DNA of 64,000 nucleotides. It comes from Zootoca vivipara (Eukaryota). The notes beneath the pieces were generated by a model. That model was not told the DNA's origin. It did no database searches and worked only from the letters and a program-made list of their open reading frames with translations. The stretch covers positions 71,486,001 through 71,550,000 of the forward strand of contig NC_083281.1 in assembly GCF_963506605.1 (NCBI RefSeq). The letters are read 5' to 3'. The number at the start of each line of letters is the position of its first letter. Positions within the stretch are counted from its first letter, which is position 1. Of this stretch, positions 3,340 through 48,100 are shown piece by piece. Made by a program: the position numbers and the translations under genes.

Positions 3340-5100
3340 GAAAGGACACGTCCGAGCACCCCAACGCCCGAAAGGGAGGAAGCGGAAAGGAAGCAGCTCA
3401 CGACACACGAGACATTGGGCAGCAGGGCCCCCAAGCTCCCTTCCAGCCGCCTGCCTCCAAGAAGCGCCCGCACTGGCCCAGGCTGAGGACCAAACCCCGC
3501 AGGAGAGGCCTGGAGGGAATCCGCTGCCCGGGACGCCTCTCGGCCGGCGCTCAAGCGCTTCAAGCTCCTGCCCCCCGGACTTCCTGGCTCACTTGCCTCC
3601 TGAGCCACAGAGTGCGACCAGGGCGCCTTGGCGGTCGCCCTCGCTCCCCGCCTTCCTGCGCCCCCGGCCCCCCTGCAGCCGCCCAGAGCCCTACCTCTTC
3701 CTCGCTAAGCCACCGAGGCGGGCACTTCCCAGCAGGCCAGCCAATCCGCCGGGCCGTTTCCACAGCCGCTTCGACCACGTCTGCTCAGTAAGCAGCCCGA
3801 GAAGGTGGAGCTTGGGGGTGGGGGGAAGGCTCACCGAAAAGCAGCAGCAGGAGCAGCCGGAAAAGCAGATGCGGCGTTCGACGGAGAGAAGAGGAAGAGC
3901 AGGAGCCCGGCGATGGTGGTGGCGGCGGCGGCGACTCTGAAAAGCTGGGCTGGGGGCCCCTGTGATTGACTCCAGAAGCTCCAGCTGTGCGCTATTTAAG
4001 GCCAGCAGCCCGGGCGGCTGCTTGGGAGCCCGAGCGCGCTTAAAGGGAGCCGGAACGGAGCTCAGCCTCACGAGTAAGGCACGAGACAGCGAGGGCGGCC
4101 AGCTAGCGCTCCTGACACCTGTCTTTCACCTCCTGCGGTGGCGTTTCCTAAGGATGCTGGGGAGCAACCAGCCCGGGGCGAGGCTCTTTCTCGCTTGCCC
4201 AAAATCCAGGCATTGCGCTGACTCCAGCAGGCGGTGAGCAGCGCGGGCTGTGGGCGATCGGGGGGCTCTGCCATGTGCGCGGGGCCCGGGGCTGAGCTTC
4301 GAAGGAGGGGCGGCGGGGGGAGGAGGAGCAGCGCGTAGGGCCGTGAGAAGCAGCGGCAGCCCGGCTGCCCCGGCCGGCCCGCGCCATGGCGAAGGATGAG
4401 TGCAAGGCGCTGCTGGACGCGCTGAGCAAAGTGACGGCCTGCTACCGGCACATGGTGCTGACCATCGGCGGCACCTCGGACTCGCAGAACCTGCGCGAGG
4501 AGCTCAAAAAGACCCGCCAGAAAGCCCAGGAACTGGCGGTGGCCAACCGCAACAAGCTTACGGCCGCCTTGCGGGACAAGACGGTGAGCAAAGAGGACAG
4601 GGCGGAATTCGAGCGGCTTTGGGTTCTCTTCTCCACCTGCTTGGAGATCCTGGAGACCGACATGCGGCGCGCCCTGGAGCTGGGGCAGGAGTTTCCCCTC
4701 AACGTACCTAAAAAGCCGCTCATCCAGACGGGGATGAGCGGCGGCACCTCCGGGGTGGCCGCCCGGGCCATGAGCGTCCAGAACATGAAATACGAGGCGG
4801 ACAACAACATCGACGTGGTGGATTTGAAGGACCTGGAGAACGAGATCAACCAAGTAGGGGAGATGATGTACGAGATGGAGATGAAAGTCAGCGTCCCGCA
4901 ATGGACGGTGGAGGCCAAGCAGGACCCTGGGGCGGAGCTCAAGTCCACAATCAGCGTGGGCGCCTCCTCCATCGGCATGATCGAGGTGGAGGAGAGCAAG
5001 GCCTTTTGCGATATCAGCAAAGTGCTGGCCGGCATCATCTTCACTGCCGTCCTTCTCATCGCCATCATCCTGGCTGTGTGTGTGGCAAAGCTCTCCTAAG
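3340..5100. promoter_or_regulatory. CpG island; RGS9BP promoter, probably bidirectional with ANKRD27
   Basis: Sharp rise in GC and CpG. CCAAT at ~3741, TATTTAA at 3993-3999. Minus-strand splice donors TCG|GTGAGC (3835/3834) and GAG|GTAGGG (3695/3694). ANKRD27 is head-to-head with RGS9BP in human. Confidence 0.7.
4386..5099 (+). CDS. RGS9BP: Regulator of G-protein signaling 9-binding protein (R9AP), intronless, 237 aa
   Basis: Strong Kozak context gcc[26 protein letters not shown]...[19 protein letters not shown] is the R9AP N-terminus. C-terminal transmembrane anchor [25 protein letters not shown]. Synteny with NUDT19 and TDRD12. Confidence 0.97.
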
Positions 5101-6626: not shown

Positions 6627-7516
6627 TTCCTGTGCTTGATCTCCGCTCTGATTCTATGGTGCAAAGAAGAGGCATGATCTCACGTTGACAGTCTGAAGTT
6701 TACACATGTACATCTCCTATTACTGTTAATGAGATTTACATATGTACCTGCCAGAGCCAAGAAGATTAGTATCAATCTTATAATCCTGACATACCCAAGA
6801 CCTGGCACAAATGTGACTTGGATGGCAGCATTTGAGCACAGGGCTGTCGGAGCTAGACAGTGGAGCTAAACATTATGTAAAAGAGGGCATTGCTCCTCTT
6901 TTAAGCTGTCTGTGGAACAGTATCTTTAAAGGGGATGCATGAAGCATTCCTGTGCAAACAAGGCCCTATCTGAAATGGCTTTTAAAGCAGCATTTCATTT
7001 CAGTCACAGTGGATTGTCAAGAACAGTATACTCAACATGCAGTTCCACTCATTCAAACTACAAAGGTGTTACTGAACATTTCTAACCACTTTAGCAGCAA
7101 TTAGCAGTTCCAGGCAACAAAGTTAAGCAACTGAAAGTGTGGTCCCATCCCTGTCTACTTAGCAGTAAGTGAGACTAACTTCTGAATAAACATGCTTAGG
7201 ACTGTATTGCTCATGTGCACAAAACATGCTTCTCTACTTGCCCCTTGAATTAACTGAGTTAATTGAAGCGGTAAGAAGATTTACAGGTCAAGCTTCAACC
7301 TCTTCAAACTTTTAAGTGCACAAGTCGGTGAAAACATTAATCTGAACCCTTGGGTGTAACAAACCCATGAGTTACAATTGTCCAGTGTTAGATTTCCTAG
7401 CAATGGTGATATGTGTTTTGGATTGGCATTGTGATAGAGTGATATACTTTGCATGATAGGATGCCCTAAGTTACTTTACATGAGTTCCTAAAGAGCTACT
7501 TCCACTTTCTCTATAC

Positions 7517-9647: not shown

Positions 9648-9856
9648 ACACTGGAAGAACTTTCTGACAGTAAGAGCTGTTCAACAGTGGAATGGACTCC
9701 CTTGGAAGATTGCAGGCTCTCCTTTCTTAGAGGTTAATTAAGCAGGGGCTGGATGGTCATCTGTCATGGATGCTTTAGTTGAGATTCCTGCATTGCATGG
9801 GGTTGGAGTGGATGAGCATTGGGGTACCTTCTACAGTGCAATTCTATTATTCTGTG
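9648..9856 (+). mobile_element. CR1 LINE 3' end fragment
   Basis: ggaagaactttctgacagtaagagctgtt... ending in an attctattattctgtg tail; matches 22955-23148. Confidence 0.85.
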
Positions 9857-10097
9857 GTTAAACGACTTGGATGAAGGAATTGAGGGTATGCTCATTAAAT
9901 TTGCGGATGACACCAAACTGGAAGGGGTAGCTAATGCCACAGAAGACAGAATTGGGATTAAAGCTGATTTTAACAGATTAGAGAACTGGGCCCAAACAAA
10001 CAAAATGAATTTCAATAGGGACAAATGTAAGGTTCTACACTTGGGCAAGAAGAACCAACTCCACAAATATAAGATGGAGGGACACCTGGCTTGCCAG

Positions 10098-10223
10098 TGT
10101 TGTTGTTTAGTCGTTTAGTCGTGTCCGACTCTTCGTGACCCCATGGACCATAGCACGCCAGGCACTCCTATGGTCCATGGGGTCACGAAGAGTCGGACAC
10201 GACTAAACGACTAAACAACAACA
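10098..10223. mobile_element. Palindromic insertion of two inverted Bov-B (RTE) 3' ends
   Basis: Both arms match the Bov-B 3' end at 56275-56350. Flanked by a 12-bp direct repeat ctggcttgccag (10086-10097, 10224-10235). Confidence 0.9.
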
Positions 10224-10840
10224 CTGGCTTGCCAGGTGTATATGTGAAAAGGATCTAGGGGTCTCAGTAGAACCACAAGCTTAACATGAGTTAACCATCT
10301 GATGCAGCAGTAAAAAAAGCTAATGCTATTCTAGGCTACGTCAACAGACGTTTAGTGTCTAAATCAAGGGAAGTAATAGCACCACTATTCTGCCTTGGTC
10401 AGACCACACCTGGAGTACTGTCTCCAGTTCTGGGCACCACCATTTAAGAAGGATAATGAAAAGCTGGAACGAGTGCAGCAGAGGATGACCAAGATGATAA
10501 AGGGCCTGGAAACCAAGTCTTATGAGGAATGGTTGGGGGAGCTGGGTATATTTAGCATGGAAAAGAGGAGACATGAAGGCCATCTTCAAATATCTAAAGG
10601 GCTGTCACATGGATTAAGGAACAAGCTTGTTTTCTCCTCCAGAGTATAGGACCAGAACCAATAGATTTATGTTACAAGAAAGAAGATTCCAATTAAACAT
10701 TAGGAATAACTTTCTGATGGTAAAAGCTCTTTGACGGTGGAACGGACTCCCTCCAGTGGTAAAATCTCCTTCATTGGAGGTTTCTTAGCACAAGTTGGAT
10801 GGCCATCAGTCATGGATACTTTAGTCGAGATTCCTCAATT

Positions 10841-10976
10841 CAGGCTTCCTCAACCTTGGCCCTCCAGATGTTTTGAGACTACAATTCCCAGCATCCTTGA
10901 CCACTGGTCATGCTAGCTAGGGATCATGGGAGCTGTAGGCCAAAAAAATCTGGATGGCCGAGGTTGAAGAAGCCTG
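10841..10976. mobile_element. 136-bp hAT MITE nested in CR1
   Basis: Long TIRs caggcttcctcaacc...; TSD cctcaatt/ccttaatt. Confidence 0.88.
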
Positions 10977-19769: not shown

Positions 19770-20760
19770 AGACGCTGTTGCGGAGGGGGGGGGGGGGCGC
19801 CGTTCACTTTCCGAACGCCTGCCTGGCAGCCCTGAGGAGACACCGCGCCTCAAAAGGCGAGCCCGCAGGGTGGCGGCGGCAACAGGCCCGCCCTGAGGAG
19901 GCGGGAGAGGCGGGAACGTGAAGGCACCGGACTCACCCTTCCCGCCAGCCCCGGAGGCCAAGGCGCGCAACATGAGCTGGCGGTTGCGGCACTGGCGGGA
20001 GGCGGCGACGCTGCTGCTGGCGGCAGGCGGGCCGGGCGCGTCTCCCCCTCGGACCGCGGCGGCGGGCGGCTTCGACTACGAACTGCTCCTGCTGCGGCGG
20101 AGCCCGCGGAGCGCCTTCTTGCCCAGCGCCCACGTCTTCCCGGGCGGCGTGGCGGACGCGGCCGACTTCTCGTCCGACTGGCTGCAGCTGTTGCCGGGCG
20201 GGCCACGCTGCGGGCTGGGCTCGGTGCGAGGCCCGAGGGCGCCGCTCTTCGCCGCCGAGCGCCCGGAGCTGGGCTCGCCGCTGCCGGGAGACGTGGCCTT
20301 CCGCATCTGCGCCATCCGCGAGTCCTTCGAGGAAGCCGGAGTCCTCTTGGTGCTGCCTGGCCCGGTCGCTGATGCCGCTGCCAATGCGGGCCCGGCCCGC
20401 CTGCTGCCCGCCGAGCGCCTCCCGCCGGCCTCGGAGCTGGCTGAGTGGCGGCGGCGGGTGCAGCGGCAGCCCAGCACCTTCCTGCAGCTGTGCCGTCACC
20501 TGAGCTGTGTGCCCAACATCTGGGCGCTGCGCGAGTGGAGCAACTGGCTGACCCCCGTGGGCCGCGCGGGGCGAGGCGGCCGCCGCTACGACACCGCCTT
20601 TTACCTCTGCTGCCTCGGGCAGGCGCCGCCGGTCGCCTCGCACGACGACGGGGAGGTGACGGCCTGCCAGGTGAGCAGGACGGGTACGAAGTGCCGCCAC
20701 CGCCGGCTGCGGGGCTGGCAGAGCCGAGGGTCCCGAAGGCGCGCCCTCCTCACACGCTTG
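19770..20760. promoter_or_regulatory. CpG island over NUDT19 promoter and exon 1
   Basis: Very high GC and CpG density around ATG 19972. Confidence 0.85.
19972..20670 (+). CDS. NUDT19: Acyl-CoA diphosphatase NUDT19, exon 1 (233 codons)
   Basis: MSWRLRHWREAATLLLAAG; split Nudix box VFPGGVAD...FRICAIRESFEEAGV; WSNWLTP; RRYDTAFY; donor CAG|GTGAGC, phase 0. Confidence 0.95.
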
Positions 20761-20811
20761 CTTCAGACATGAGGCGATTTTTGTCATCATTTTTATTACT
20801 ACTAGTATTGC

Positions 20812-22309: not shown

Positions 22310-23148
22310 GGATGGGTGACACCTGTCTTGAGAGCAGTACATGTGAAAAGGATCTAGGACTCTTGGTAGACCACAAACTTGACATGAGTCAACAGTGTGA
22401 TGCAGCAGCTAAAAAAGCCAATGCAATTCTGGGCTGCATCAATAGGAGTATAGCATCTAGATCAGGCATAGGCAACCTTGGCTCTCCAGATGTTTTGGAA
22501 CTACAACTCCCATGATCCCTAGCTAACAGGGCCAGTGGTCAGGGATCATGGGAGTTGTAGTTCCAAAACATCTGGAGAGCCAAGGTTGCCTATGCCTGAT
22601 CTAGATCAAGGGAAGTAATAATACCACTGTATTCTGCCCTGGTCAGACTTCACCTGGAGTACTGTGTCCAGTTCTGGGCACCACAGTTCAAGAAGGATAC
22701 TGACAAGCTGGAATGTGTCCAGAGGAGGGCAAAATGGTCAAAGGCCTGGAAACGATGCCTTATGAGGAACAGCTTAGGGAGCTGGGTATGTTTAGCCTGG
22801 AGAAGAGAAGGTTAAGGGGTGATATGATAGCCATGTTCAAATATATAAAAGGATGTCATATAGAGGGAGAAAGGTTGTTTTCTGCTGCTCCAGAGAAGCG
22901 GACACGGAGCAATGGATTCAAACTACAAGAAAGAAGATTCCACATAAACATTAGGAAGAACTTCCTGACAGTAAGAGCTGTTCGACAGTGGAATTTCCTG
23001 CCAATGAGTGTGGTGGAGTCTCCTTCTTGGAGGTCTTTAAGCAGAGGCTTGACAGCCATATGTCAGGAATGCTTTGGTGGTGTTTCCTGCTTGGCAGGGG
23101 GTTGGACTGGATGGCCCTTGTAGTCTCTTCCAACTCTATGATTCTATG
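22310..23148 (+). mobile_element. CR1 LINE 3' portion in NUDT19 intron 1
   Basis: [36 protein letters not shown]; [16 protein letters not shown]; ctatgattctatg tail. Confidence 0.93.
22463..22598. mobile_element. 136-bp hAT MITE nested in CR1
   Basis: Perfect 58-bp TIRs with a 20-bp spacer; perfect TSD atctagat. Confidence 0.95.
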
Positions 23149-29166: not shown

Positions 29167-29302
29167 CAGTGATGGCCAGACCTGGCCTTCCAGCTGTTTT
29201 GGGACTACAACTCCCATCATCCCTAGCTAACAGAACCAGTGGTCAGGGATGAATGGAATTGTAGTCCCAAAACAGCTGGCGGGCCAAGTTTGGCCATCAT
29301 TG
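29167..29302. mobile_element. 136-bp hAT MITE
   Basis: Same family as 22463 and 47000; TIR cagtgatggcca; no matching TSD. Confidence 0.85.
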
Positions 29303-39100: not shown

Positions 39101-42100
39101 AGAAGGGCTGAATAAAAGTGTAATAAATAAAAGCTGTTAAGTTGGCATGTGGTGACAAACTTTTTAAAAAAGCAAACATGTATATTTTCAGGCTTCTACA
39201 ATTTTTAAATCCTTTGAAAGCTGTTGATGGACAAGATGAGACAAAGGTATTTCAATTAACTGTTGCTTTTGGCAGATCATAAACACTTTTGGACTGTTAG
39301 TGCCATTTGAATATATAAATGAGCTTTTATAATTTTGGTTTGTTTATCTAGTTTTTTGAATTGATACATGGTGTACCCACCACTTCAGAAATTGCTACAC
39401 AGTCACCTATTTCACAAAGTTCTGGATGATCTCAAAACTGTCAACTAATAATGTGCTTTCCAGATTGGAACAGGAGGACTATTTGAAAATAGGAAGCAAT
39501 TTGGGGTTATCTTAGAATTTGATAGCTGAAGATTGAATATCTTTTAGAGTCCTAATTATAGCACTGGTATTCATGAAATCTTAGTGATCCCATAAAAGGC
39601 ATAAATTGTTTTGTGCTTTTTCCTAAACAAAAAAAAATATGAAACCATTTGCAGTGAGGGAGAACATTTTAATGCAAATCATCATGTATCCTGTCTGTTG
39701 CAAGACTTGTGATTGTTACCTTTAATTTTAGAAGTTACAAGTGAATACCGGTGCATTTCGTCCTGCTGTCCTTAATAAAAAAATGGAACCATGTTCATCT
39801 CTTGAAACAGCACCACTATTTCCAACTCTGAAAAAGGTAATATTCACTATACGATATAGAAAAGCATGGATTGTGTATTTTATTTAATACTGAAAGCTCT
39901 AAATTATTTTTTGAAATTGAGCATGCTCTAAAAATAGCACTTGTTTCTATTGCCATCTTCAGCATAATAGAATCCCAGTAATTCATTGAGGTCACCACAA
40001 AGCTGAATATCAATTTTGGAAGAGGATATGGAAGACCGAGGCAGCAATCCTACACACTTAACTGGAAGAAAGTCCCATTGAACATGATGGGGCTTGCTTT
40101 TGAGTAGGGATTGTCCTGTAGGATTGCCCTGGGAGTTTCAAATTGCTGCTTTACCATGAAGCCCACTAGATAGCTATGGGCAAGCACCTTGCACTAAGCA
40201 GCCTCACAGGATGACCAAGAGGATGAAATGGTTCAAAGTGACACATTGTAATGTGTCCTAATCCCTTAGATATGGCAATTTACTATCTCTGAACAACCAA
40301 CATGAAGCTTTGCACAGCAGAGCAAGCTAGCTGTTGATACTCTGCCCACCCCGCCTTAATACATTTTATGCTGGTGGAAGTAATGCATTTTAAATACGAT
40401 GCAGCCCATACCCAGAAATTGCATTGCTTATTGATTTTTACCCATTTGTTAGCAGTAGATCTGATGAGCAACTCAAAAAGGTTTAATTGGTAATTAAGGC
40501 TACAACTGTGTGCTCATTTGCACTCAGGTGCCGCTTGTTTCAGTGGAATTTGTTTGTTAGCTTGGCAGGGAATTGTTTTCCAAGACTATAAATAGTTACA
40601 ACTGTATCTGCTTAAAACTTGGTCCTGACCATAGCTGGTGCTGCTCCAACCCCTGCCACCCCTTAATGCTGTATTGATTTCTCATATACAGAATATTCAA
40701 TAACCCAGACTGTTTGAACCACATGCTGTACAGAAATATGTAGGCTGTCATCCAGTGAATCAGTATACATCTGTAATGGGTCACCTGTGCCCATACACAG
40801 GTGGTGATCTCCACGGAGATTCTGCAGGAAGCAACTCACATTGATCCCTTGTTAACAGGAAAGCTGTGACTCTGTATATAATGTACCTGCATTTGATCAT
40901 CTCCCTAAGACCGACTCTTCTATTTTAAGCAAATACATAAATACAGTTGATGCATTTCCCCCCTTGGTAGGAACTTCTAAGGAATCAGTTCCCAGGACCT
41001 AATCATGTACAGTCTTATTCGTGGCCACCAATAGCTCGCGGATGTGATTCAGTTATTATCTCTCCTGAAAACGATCCACTGCTATATCTTCTGCCAATTA
41101 TTACGTTTTTGCAGTCAAGAAGTTGCTATGTATCACTGCCAGCTCGGAGTGGTGTAAGTAGGATATTCCGTTTATGCCCAAATGCCTTCTTTGTTGAAAC
41201 CAAGTCTTGGAACAGTGTAGGCTTGGATTAAGCAGTCAGAATGTGTGGTGCTTTCTGTGGTTGCTTTTTGGATGTGGGCTCTGCATTTGAATGTGCATCA
41301 CTTCTGAATGGGACTATGTGAGGCAACAGACATCTCAGTTTCCAACCAAATAGTTAAGTCCATTGTAACCATGTCTTAAGGAGCCGCTTAGAAATGCAGG
41401 AAATATAGGGAAGGTGGGAATGCTGTAGCCTCTGATATGAATGTCTAAGCTAACCAGTTGCCTGCCTAGATAGTTCTATCTAGAGACCCTGAGCAGTAGA
41501 TGTTTGAATGGGCTCAGCTCATCCAAAGCTAGCTGCAAGCAATAGAACATGAGATTAACTTTTTAAAAGTTGTGATAACATATTCTTCCTAAGGGATGGC
41601 TTAGAGTAAAGAGAAGGATCAAACTTTATCTGTATAAATGCCTCTAGTTTGGGGGGCAGGGGGTTGGCAGGGAGGGGGAACTAGAACCCAGCAGGCCTTC
41701 TTCAGGCATGTATATTTGGCATTAACTAAATATGTACGGGGGGGGGGGGCAATGAGAATGAGCATACTAGCTTTGTCCTGCCATTGTTCTCATTTCCCTC
41801 CATAAGCTGCAGAATGACTGACTGAAGTAGGGAGCTTCCATGAGAGCAATGGCAAAAGGTTTGTCTGGAGTCGGTGTGCTGATCCTTTATAGCAGGCTTC
41901 CTCAAACTCGGCCCTCCAGCTATTTTTGGCCTACAACTCCCATGATCCCTAGCTAGCATGACCAGGGATGATGGGAACTGTAGTCTCAAAACATCTGGAG
42001 GGCCGAGTTTGAGGAAGCCTTGCATGTTTCAATTAATAACCAATGTGCACACTTCATGAGGGTTATGTACAGCAATGTACAGCAAGCCATTTGGAGGGTT

Positions 42101-45100: not shown

Positions 45101-48100
45101 AACAGATATAATTTACAAGGTATTTCCCCCTAAACTATACAGTCCAGATTGTTTAGAAAGAAAGATTGTTTAGAAAGAAAGATTCTCCTCTTTTCTATCC
45201 AGGTTAATGGATAAATACATAGCTGAATAGGCAATAAGAGGGTGTTGCAAAAGGAAATGGTTTCATTTCTTATTTTATCATTTTCAAAGCTTTGCATAAG
45301 ACATGTGAAGTGTTGTCATATGGGAATCTCAAAGCAGGAAAAGCTAGTCACTTCCAGAAAAGGACTGCTCTCCCCCCCCCCCCGGGTGAGATATACTCCA
45401 AATCTGATATCAGTAGTCTTAAGTGGCCAATTGGAGATTTTAGGCACTTGAGCAACTAATGACTTTGGACTTGCATTACTCAAAAATGCCAATATAAAAG
45501 AATTGTGGGGTGAAAACTCAGAACCCAAATATTCCTTTCTCAGCCGGGATGCAAAACCCCAGGTACTCCAGGTGACAATGTTTTGCTACATCAGCAGATA
45601 AGGGTGTTTTGTATGCAAGTCCAGCAGCAGGACTGATCACTGATTAAGGCACTGGCTGAGCTCCCACCCACATCGCTGCCACTCACTGGCCCTGGTCCTC
45701 CACAACAGGAGCCCAGATCAAACATGAGGGGCGGCAGGCAAGAGACGTTGACGGCGCCAGGACTGTCTGCCTATGGGGCTGCCTCACATGCTACACCCCT
45801 CTGTCCAGGCAGGCCCCAGGTACCTGGCCCAGGCAAAATCAAAAGCAGCAAACAGAAACAGCTGGGGTTCAAAGGGCAAAGATTGATAACAGCACCCCGA
45901 GTACCTTCACTCTCATGAATACAGCAAACAACTCTATTAAAAAAACCCTTTGCTTTTGAAGTTGTTACATTATTTTGTTTGCTAGAAATAAATATTGAAC
46001 TTGAGGGGGCAATTCAACTAGCTTGAAAATGTGGCAGAATGGTGTGCCTGTGTCAGAGAGACAGAGACAAGGAAAATAATAGGCAGGAGATGGTTGCCCA
46101 TGGCTTCTGAAACCACTGCTTGGAGTTTCAATCCTCCCCGCTTTGGCACTGTTGACAAATTATACTGATGAAATGAAAGCTTTGGCTAACTCGGATGGAT
46201 TTTTGCGTTGAAGGACTCTGCGCGCCATTGAGTTGTTCAAAATAAACCCCGTATCTCATCATTCTTTAATTTGAGATAAAAGCAACTAAGATTAAAAAAT
46301 CTATGGTGATAGAAGTTTTCTTGCACTCAAGCTCTGCTTTGTCCAAGGCATGTAATCTTAGTTTGAAGGAATTAAAAAAAAAATAGGTAGGAGTTTGGCA
46401 ACGAGATTCAAAAAATGCAGTTGCTGATAATGAGAGTTCACATGTCTGTTCAGTTGGTACCTTTTTGCAGCAGCCAGCAGGTGATAGTGGGGCTAAGAGG
46501 AAGGAGTTCAGAAGTGGAAGGGAAAGGAAAGGGGAAAGGAAAGAGGACAGGACCAAGGGGCCAGCCTTGGTTGTCTTGTGTTCTGAAACATCCCTGAAGG
46601 GAAGGACAAAAGTCCTGCTATGACTGATAAAGCCTTGCCTTGTTTGTGGAGTGTTCCCACAACAACCGAAGTCACTGTGTTGATTCCTTGCTGCAGGGGA
46701 TGAATGTTTCTTCGGGCTGCAAGGCAGTAAGGCAGGCAACAGGGAAGGCACTGCTGGGTTGAAACAGCATAAATTGGTAACACAAGCAGTGCAGCACAGT
46801 TTACAGAGGCAGCATTTTGACTGCTGCTGATAGGTACAAGATCTTACCAAGGAATTGATATGCATTCCAAATGAATTGATTTGTGTCTCCTTATTTCACA
46901 AAAGGCCATGCATTTGTTTGATACTGTATATAAATGAATATAATCATCCAGGGACACTTTAGCCTTCATTTAAGGGCTAAATGAAACTGACCCTTTAGAC
47001 AGTGATGGCCAAACTTAGCCCTCCAGCTGTTTTGGGACTACAACTCCCACCATCCCTAGCTAACAGGACCAGTGGTTAGGGATGATGGGAATTGTAGTCC
47101 CAAAACAGCTGGAGGACCAAGTTTGACCAAGTTTTAGAACGTAGAAAAAAAAGATTACTCATGACCAGGCTTTTAATTCTGAATGCAGCAGTGTTCAATT
47201 CAGTTTGTTTTTTTAAATCAGAGCATTGTTCAGTAATTATACATTTCTTTTGTAATCCACATTGTTTGAAACCATTCTCTTTTTTAATTAGGCAGTGGAG
47301 AGCACTTCAATATTTTGTTTGAAAATGCACCCAGACATCGAATTTCATTTTGATTATGTTTTAGAGCAATGGAACAAAAAATTTAGCTCTGGCACACATG
47401 TTGTACTAGGTAAATATATTGTTTTTCTCACATATGCTTACTCTAAAACCTTTGTCAGAACTATAGTGACTCAATCTCTTTCATTAAAATTTAATTAGAT
47501 GTATCATTTGCTATATTATTATTAAACTGTTCAGATAATTATTGTCTCCCAAAGAGGCTCACATAAAGAAAAAAATAAAGGGGGGTGAGTTTTGCCATCA
47601 GGTTTACAAACTACAGTGTGCAATTCTGAGCACCCCACTTCAAGAAGCTATTGACAAATGAACATGTGCAGAGGATGACTGAGGGTCTGGAAACCAATTC
47701 TTATGAGAAGGGATATAATGGTCACCATCAAATATCTGAAGGATTGTCACATGGAAGATGGAGCAAGCTTGTTTTCTGCTGCTCCAGAAAGCAGGACCTA
47801 AACCAATAGATTCAAATGATGAGAGAGGAGTTTCTGACTATACATTAGGAAGAACTTTCTGCGTGTAAGAGCTGTTTGACAGTGGAATGGACTCCCTTGA
47901 AATGTAACTAGATGGCCCTTTGGTGCCTTCCAACTCTATGATTCTATGACTTTTGAAAGTGGTTGCCTCTCCTACCCTGAAGGTTTTACACAAGTAAAAT
48001 AACCATCCGTCAGGTATTATTTAGCTGTGATTCCTGTGTTTCAGGGGGTTGGATTAGCTCACCCTTGGGGTCCCTGCCAACCCTACAATTCCATGATTCT

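Follow-up and report, generated by a model that had tools for sequence, protein, structure and literature searches.

A double-tailed Bov-B hairpin inside a CR1 copy as the probable product of a truncated cDNA that snapped back during integration

The stretch of 64,000 nucleotides analysed here (the window; G000:C6:71486001-71550000) carries a single-exon open reading frame of 237 amino acids, which we take to be RGS9BP-like and which gave a weak Syntaxin_2 match below the cut-off. Another frame of 266 amino acids, GC-rich and presumably belonging to a NUDT19-like gene, lies at 19972-20772 (+); it is probably a first exon and was without match in Pfam. Between the two frames lies a LINE copy, taken to be CR1 (the label that the original prediction also used), which is split by the hairpin under study (Table 1). 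The left part of this copy has 39 paralogs at 89-93%, and a Pfam search of its RT-like frame gave no match; the register of the right part was confirmed against paralogs. A position of the hairpin within the 3' UTR of the RGS9BP-like gene is doubtful, because four AATAAA/ATTAAA signals (at 7185, 8763, 9129 and 9601) lie between the stop of the frame at 5099 and the CR1 copy. Two related CR1-like 3' ends in the same orientation, about 1,050 bp apart, occupy 9653-9856 and 10703-10840, and an element about 135 bp long, which ends in inverted repeats of 56 nt (80%) and looks like a true MITE, is present at 10841-10976, with copies near 22462-22599, 29180-29292, 41892-42020, 47010-47126 and 60929-61016.

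The insertion that splits the CR1 copy totals 126 bp and consists of two Bov-B 3' ends with their tails pointing outward and a 14-nt loop between them. Sequence comparison showed that 10093-10153 and 10168-10228 are exact reverse complements of 61 bp, and that the arms lengthen to 72 bp (10082-10153 and 10168-10239, 97%) across a TT/TT mismatch, after which pairing ends. The predicted RNA fold has an energy of -144.8 kcal/mol (z = -25.4), equalled by none of 200 shuffles. There are no differences between the long and the short arm, 56 nt of the long arm recur in the inverted one, and the tail junction of the short arm lacks T|A. The original prediction had described perfect 61-bp arms with a 14-nt loop and a 72-bp extension, a Bov-B origin of both arms, a join through a 2-nt CT, and a flanking 12-bp direct repeat, and all of these were recovered exactly: the long arm (72 nt) and the short arm (56 nt) are each 100% identical to the Bov-B 3' end, and their alignments overlap by CT.

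Table 1. Features of the window that bear on the hairpin
Feature	Position	Strand	Remarks
Single-exon 237-aa ORF, presumably RGS9BP-like	4386..5099	+	about 5 kb upstream of the hairpin
Host LINE (presumably CR1), left part	9852..10097	+	open 82-aa RT-like frame reaching the insertion; left boundary approximate
ACAC, from which the derived GTGT at 10236-10239 was likely templated	10082..10085	+	exact reverse complement; GTGT absent in 98 paralogs
Left copy of the target-site duplication	10086..10097	+	12-bp direct repeat; L088, an ordinary insertion, has a matching junction
Long arm, 72 nt of Bov-B 3' end with (CAA)n tail	10098..10169	-	100% = 56279-56350
Hairpin loop of 14 nt, long-arm portion left uncopied	10154..10167	.
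CT microhomology, pairable with AG at 10152-10153	10168..10169	.	alignments of the two arms overlap by 2 nt
Short arm, 56 nt of the same 3' end and tail, opposite orientation	10168..10223	+	100% identity
Right copy of the target-site duplication	10224..10235	+	12-bp direct repeat
GTGT in place of the TAGT/CAGT of paralogs; closes the outer palindrome	10236..10239	+	0/98 and 0/24 paralogs
Host CR1, right part, continuing in register	10240..10835	+	matches 22323-22464 and 22600-23088; right boundary approximate
Ordinary 5'-truncated Bov-B copy, used as reference	56275..56705	-	about 431 nt common to other copies

The reference copy of the element ends in the C-terminus of an RT ORF. Judged from their sequence, the sister copies bearing this tail belong to a LINE, because they carry RT-encoding frames that end at the tail; these frames are open for up to 520 aa, and the one in L022 matches RVT_1 with E = 4.5e-39. 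The name Bov-B (RTE clade) is a putative assignment that rests on the tail, on the target signature and on the C-terminal motif of the RT ORF, which we take to be that of Bov-B. The tail is (CAA)n, unlike the (ACCTTT)n of the Sauria SINE, a criterion for telling the two apart that is given in the accessible text of PMC13295347 together with the Bov-B target signature, Tn-TA. The squamate Bov-B described there shares with ours the (CAA)n tail, a duplication beginning with A after T, and an upstream T stretch, and the main text of that paper, so far as accessible, has no occurrence of "invert" or "palindrom".

The target itself was reconstructed from CR1 paralogs. GTGT after CCAG was found in none of 98 paralogs in a pattern match across the site and in none of 24 aligned paralogs; most have TAGT or CAGT after the 12-mer, and in the 24 aligned paralogs the palindrome arms at this site reach 3-6 bp only. 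The original prediction had reconstructed a 20-bp palindromic empty site, of which the length holds, while the letters are probably wrong in view of the missing GTGT. Only the inner 5-bp arms appear to be ancestral and the outer half derived, so that the 20-bp palindrome is probably a product rather than a cause of the insertion. A palindromic target as the cause was rejected, as the 24 paralogs have short arms and the sister loci described below have ordinary targets. GTGT is best read as templated from the left flank, and the right flank would then be a mosaic, because its central TT follows the target while GTGT follows the hairpin. The first 5 nt of the right duplication copy also match the inverted copy of the left flank.

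In the paralogous CR1 site, the minus strand has a T stretch and then, about 10 nt on, T|A, which is the Bov-B signature and is found for the long arm only. In the hairpin locus the 12-bp duplication is present; the T|A is missing in the present sequence and is seen in the paralogous site. Two more Bov-B insertions, L088 (G000:C5:52884770) and L105 (G000:C2:13333362), lie at the same position of paralogous CR1 copies; a Bov-B target site is built into this CR1 family. L088 is of the ordinary kind, with one tail and a staggered duplication of 13 bp; therefore, a perfect palindrome is not needed for the stagger. Nesting of one insertion in an older Bov-B was rejected for the hairpin locus because both flanks are CR1, although it suits a few sister loci (L129, L143 and L050).

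The 1.44-Gb assembly was then searched for other tail-out pairs. A 17-mer anchor has 28,692 exact copies genome-wide, and an 11-mer anchor has 48,735, of which about 3,100 are background. Four tail-out pair patterns (for one of them, 50 of 51 pairs were listed and examined) yielded 58 distinct loci, of which a first set contributed 28 and a second set another 30; because the searches recover only pairs that have exact anchors and span less than about 280 bp, every count is a minimum. Direct head-to-head joins with overlaps of up to 8 nt make up 42 of the 58, and the remaining 16 have spacers. Arm lengths vary from 20 to 371 nt, which answers the alternative posed in the original prediction in favour of a recurrent mechanism and against a fixed mobile family. 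Palindromic targets, which it had also envisaged, are not a property of the class: at other double-tailed loci the target is not a palindrome, and one flank is present as an inverted copy. The number of pairs as such is not taken as evidence, because tail-out pairs do not exceed uniform scatter (14 at 30-250-nt spacing against about 32 expected; tail-in pairs, 44 against 36). The non-chance evidence resides in the junctions and flanks.

Two side observations arose from the same searches. In six tail-in pairs (G000: C2:106956999, C3:44105265, C3:60873396, C5:11938563, C7:74575335 and C8:1537445), one Bov-B tail abuts the last ~20 bases of the opposed copy, suggesting that the Bov-B 3' end is itself a preferred target. 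The same fold-back register is also seen at unrelated sites (L057/L060/L137, L058/L116, L059/L128, L063/L120 and L044/L144), which suggests that the sequence of the Bov-B 3' end sets hot spots for snap-back.

With arm extents curated by hand, loops of 3-24 nt were present in 34 of 42 direct joins, compared to 13.3 expected from independent truncations, a number reached in 0 of 200,000 simulations; no loop was under 4 nt. Among long pairs, short loops were found in 15 of 23 (3.8 expected), and eight of the 42 direct joins have loops of 48-345 nt. The phenomenon is recurrent, with at least 34 inherited sites, or about 0.07% of tails at minimum. In 20 of the 58 loci the inverted repeat passes both tails and continues into the flanking DNA for 15-229 bp, abutting both tails; 16 of these 20 belong to the 34 short-loop joins, and the chance rate of a flank copy of at least 15 bp between independent tails is 0.003. 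These counts are BLAST-based, as automated scoring, which missed L063 and counted a microsatellite at L030, was set aside, and they leave out L142, whose diverged flank copy was seen by eye. The flank copies are 92-100% identical, and therefore the class is of mixed age and does not stem from faulty assembly.

The flank copies also have a direction. A duplication of at least 8 bp beyond the inverted flank copy was on the short-arm side in all 12 scorable loci (L031, L041, L045, L056, L058, L063, L110, L112, L116, L132, L134 and L137; p = 2.4e-4), six from each set, with the second six found after this polarity had been predicted; L051, with a marginal 8-bp duplication, was left out. The longer arm is thus the original insertion in 12 of 12 loci with a scorable distal duplication. 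Under this strict rule, 8 of the 20 flank-copy loci have no scorable duplication, and a search for the opposite polarity returned only self-complementary matches beside the tail. Of 16 loci, 15 have the T|A cut signature on the long arm and 2 have it on the short arm (Fisher p = 7e-6); on the long arm it agrees with the Tn-TA signature given for Bov-B in the accessible text of PMC13295347.

The point at which copying stopped varies, being inside the element (L147), in the tail (L035, L047 and L062) or in the flank. L147 (G000:C5:15174121) has nearly the same register as the hairpin locus, and its copy halts before the tail, leaving one tail and a 10-bp duplication. Variants or odd tails are common to both arms in L032, L037, L038 and L061. 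The spacer loci and the long-loop direct joins, some of which (L036 and L039) have arms that come from different templates, may be independent or dual-primed insertions. At L051 (G000:C6:50227453), a second small hairpin with 11-bp arms, about 120 bp to the right of the short arm, encloses what is left of the duplication, as though the DNA had folded back once more at the distal junction.

We consider it probable (roughly 0.8) that the hairpin arose from a single 5'-truncated Bov-B insertion, the cDNA of which folded back and primed a copy of itself. Fold-back after one insertion was the second option of the original prediction, and it is now favoured by the loops, the flank copies, their polarity and the cut signature. 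The endonuclease would nick the top strand at the T-stretch/T|A site in CR1, with a second nick 12-13 nt away, and the 3' end of the left duplication copy, probably together with T at 10098, would serve as the primer end. Reverse transcription would halt after 72 nt, giving the long arm as first-strand cDNA. Its 3' CT would then pair with AG across the 14-nt loop, making 10168-10169 the snap-back point, and the polymerase, which may be the RT of the element or a host enzyme such as Pol theta (the two are not distinguishable here), would copy back through the tail into the primer-side flank, making the short arm a copy of the long one. The copied end would join the far side of the staggered break in register, aided by the 5-bp quasi-palindrome of CR1, with the duplication kept. 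GTGT could be written from the left flank during the insertion or by a later hairpin-driven template switch, and the mosaic right flank could reflect an imperfectly annealed fold-back strand with patchy repair, successive template switches, or later correction. Copying beyond the 12-nt overhang, to 229 bp elsewhere, would imply resection or strand displacement, with the RNA removed first. That all this took place during integration is suggested by where the copy lies, with the truncation point on one side and the duplication on the other.

At the hairpin locus, snap-back is supported by the identical arms and tails, the derived GTGT and the ordinary insertion at the same CR1 site, and the junction has a 2-nt overlap, a 14-nt loop and an antisense copy that begins at the cDNA 3' end. 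The equal length of the two tails is weak evidence, since 17 of 59 independent tails have this length. Against it count, in the class, the spacer loci, the long-loop joins and the flank-copy loci that lack a scorable duplication, and, at the hairpin locus, the T|A that is missing from the present sequence. The quasi-palindromic target blurs the distinction between flank copy and duplication, and a simple copy predicts AA where TT stands, so that an extra template switch or patchy repair of a heteroduplex is needed. The weight of the finding rests on the class rather than on the single locus, which is probably neutral.

The alternative that deserves most attention is dual priming, in which both 3' ends of the staggered cut would prime from the Bov-B tail and the two short cDNAs would anneal at 2 nt. 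It is unlikely. GCCAG does precede each nick on its own strand, the central TT is retained as a true duplication, L035, L047 and L062 have a duplication and two tails with no flank copy, and the arms of L036 differ at 7 positions. However, the short-arm side lacks T|A at the hairpin locus and in 14 of 16 other loci, and in L035, L047 and L062 it is always the short arm that bears the short tail and the long arm that bears T|A; nor does dual priming predict the loop-size peak, the inverted flank copies, their polarity or GTGT. The headline of the original prediction, that both strands primed at a palindromic target, is not sustained, as the cut signature is on the long arm only and the outer palindrome appears derived. 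A little less probable still is that a replication template switch, having nothing to do with retrotransposition, later turned an ordinary single-tailed insertion into a hairpin. Short inverted duplications with microhomology are a common class of human structural variants according to the accessible text of PMC12350158, and GTGT at the hairpin locus may well be such a later correction. Yet in the scorable loci the inverted copy spans from the 5' truncation point to a few bases off the second duplication copy (at most about 10 nt at L134), and a later unrelated event would have no reason to fit between these two points.

The two remaining explanations carry less weight. The arms are 100% identical, and 10208-10222 was left uncovered by public contigs at 92% likeness in 4 of 4 runs, as might be expected if the hairpin were an artefact of assembly or of a chimeric read. 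We regard this as quite improbable: the right flank that follows is the correct one, keeps the register of the paralogs and comes with a 12-bp duplication, the flank copies elsewhere include some that have aged in the genome, and holes in contigs at repeats and palindromes carry no proof. None of the public contigs (runs X1, X3, X9, X13 and X14) bridged either allele, so that the filled allele is neither confirmed nor excluded by them. A 110-nt contig in run X9 aligns to 10224-10329 with 2 differences, and 4 letters at the expected start of the tail stay unaligned; this hint of a different allele was given no weight; a contig in run X14 passes the site without the insert and could be a paralog. 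A mobile MITE-like family built from Bov-B tails can be given almost no credence, even though junction registers recur (46/32 three times; 54/39, 52/44, 67/53 and 37/27 twice each). Where loci have a register in common, their flanks differ and each has a flank copy of its own, arm extents range as widely as given above, and the exact junction of the hairpin locus is single-copy in the genome, with one further one-mismatch match in a differently built locus. The description as MITE-like thus holds for the shape of the hairpin and fails for a mobile family.

Snap-back of a cDNA, which we prefer, has relatives in other non-LTR elements. L1 twin priming inverts an upstream segment of the RNA and leaves one tail. 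Our loci share with it an inverted element segment, a microhomology junction and a target duplication, but a twin-primed 5' inversion was ruled out for the hairpin, which has two tails and an inverted arm that duplicates 56 nt already copied. In engineered R2 insertion in human cells (PRINT), as described in the accessible text of PMC11371274, the cDNA 3' end likewise primes on the cDNA before the upstream join and leaves an antisense copy, for one protein especially after full-length cDNA; that text does not describe a retained duplication, nor synthesis that runs back past the 3' tail and on into the flank at the primer side. Short foldback inversions beside L1 target sites (52-220 bp, 0.3% of events; PMC10191854, accessible text) likewise produce an inverted flank duplication at resolution, in a size range to be compared with 15-229 bp here. 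There, however, the upstream (reciprocal) flank is copied and one poly(A) is left, whereas our loci copy their own tail and the primer-side flank and have two tails. In the accessible part of a study of remodelled L1 break ends (bioRxiv 10.1101/2024.12.14.628481), small hairpins with 2-bp homology likewise prime with the duplication preserved, and fold-back is possible for the primary RT end. The small inverted duplications reported there are on the reciprocal end and the RT-end foldbacks give large somatic rearrangements, unlike the RT-end fold-back here, which is resolved locally and inherited. The excess of head-to-head Alu pairs at 24-36-bp spacers (PMC3215922, accessible text) was considered as a parallel and rejected as a different thing, as it concerns full-length pairs with spacers. 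In the literature searched (main texts, for the most part of open-access papers), no double-tailed snap-back LINE insertion was described; snap-back itself is known from R2 and L1, and read-through past the element's own tail was not found there.

The shape of the hairpin raises the question of small RNAs. Rfam mir-6536 matches 10120-10201 at 67.3 bits, under its gathering score of 100, with 48 of 81 consensus letters in agreement, including an 8-nt run in the loop; the best score was that of mir-5014 (77.6 against a gathering score of 101), mostly on structure, and a search of the Bov-B tail monomer gave no match. Long perfect hairpins tend to give such sub-threshold Rfam miRNA matches. The cattle group also carries Bov-B. 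In the accessible record mir-6536 is reported in cattle, and it may be a ruminant Bov-B fold-back, as a candidate that the alignment brings forward. The hsa-mir-378a hairpin lies in two opposed MIRc (PMC9380744, accessible text), and like mir-6536 it resembles our locus in being a hairpin of two opposed copies; the hairpin here differs in scoring below the Rfam gathering threshold. Most likely, it is a neutral by-product.

How LINEs complete the 5' junction and the second strand is still debated, and one route has left an inherited trace in the tail-out loci. Dozens of sites preserve a legible loop, microhomology, flank copy and retained duplication. Their polarity identifies the primed strand, and the loci show that copying can extend up to about 230 bp into the primer-side flank. 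They also offer a direct means of telling RT from Pol theta in a Bov-B retrotransposition assay. Hairpins of opposed elements gain a one-step origin that does not require two chance insertions. As a tentative extension, which we hold to be possible rather than likely, snap-back with read-through would be a regular integration route of Bov-B/RTE elements, used in at least about 1 in 1,000 insertions, that makes hairpins and inverted duplications of host DNA and may have seeded miRNA or endo-siRNA genes wherever Bov-B spread, with mir-6536 as an independent product in nearly the same register.
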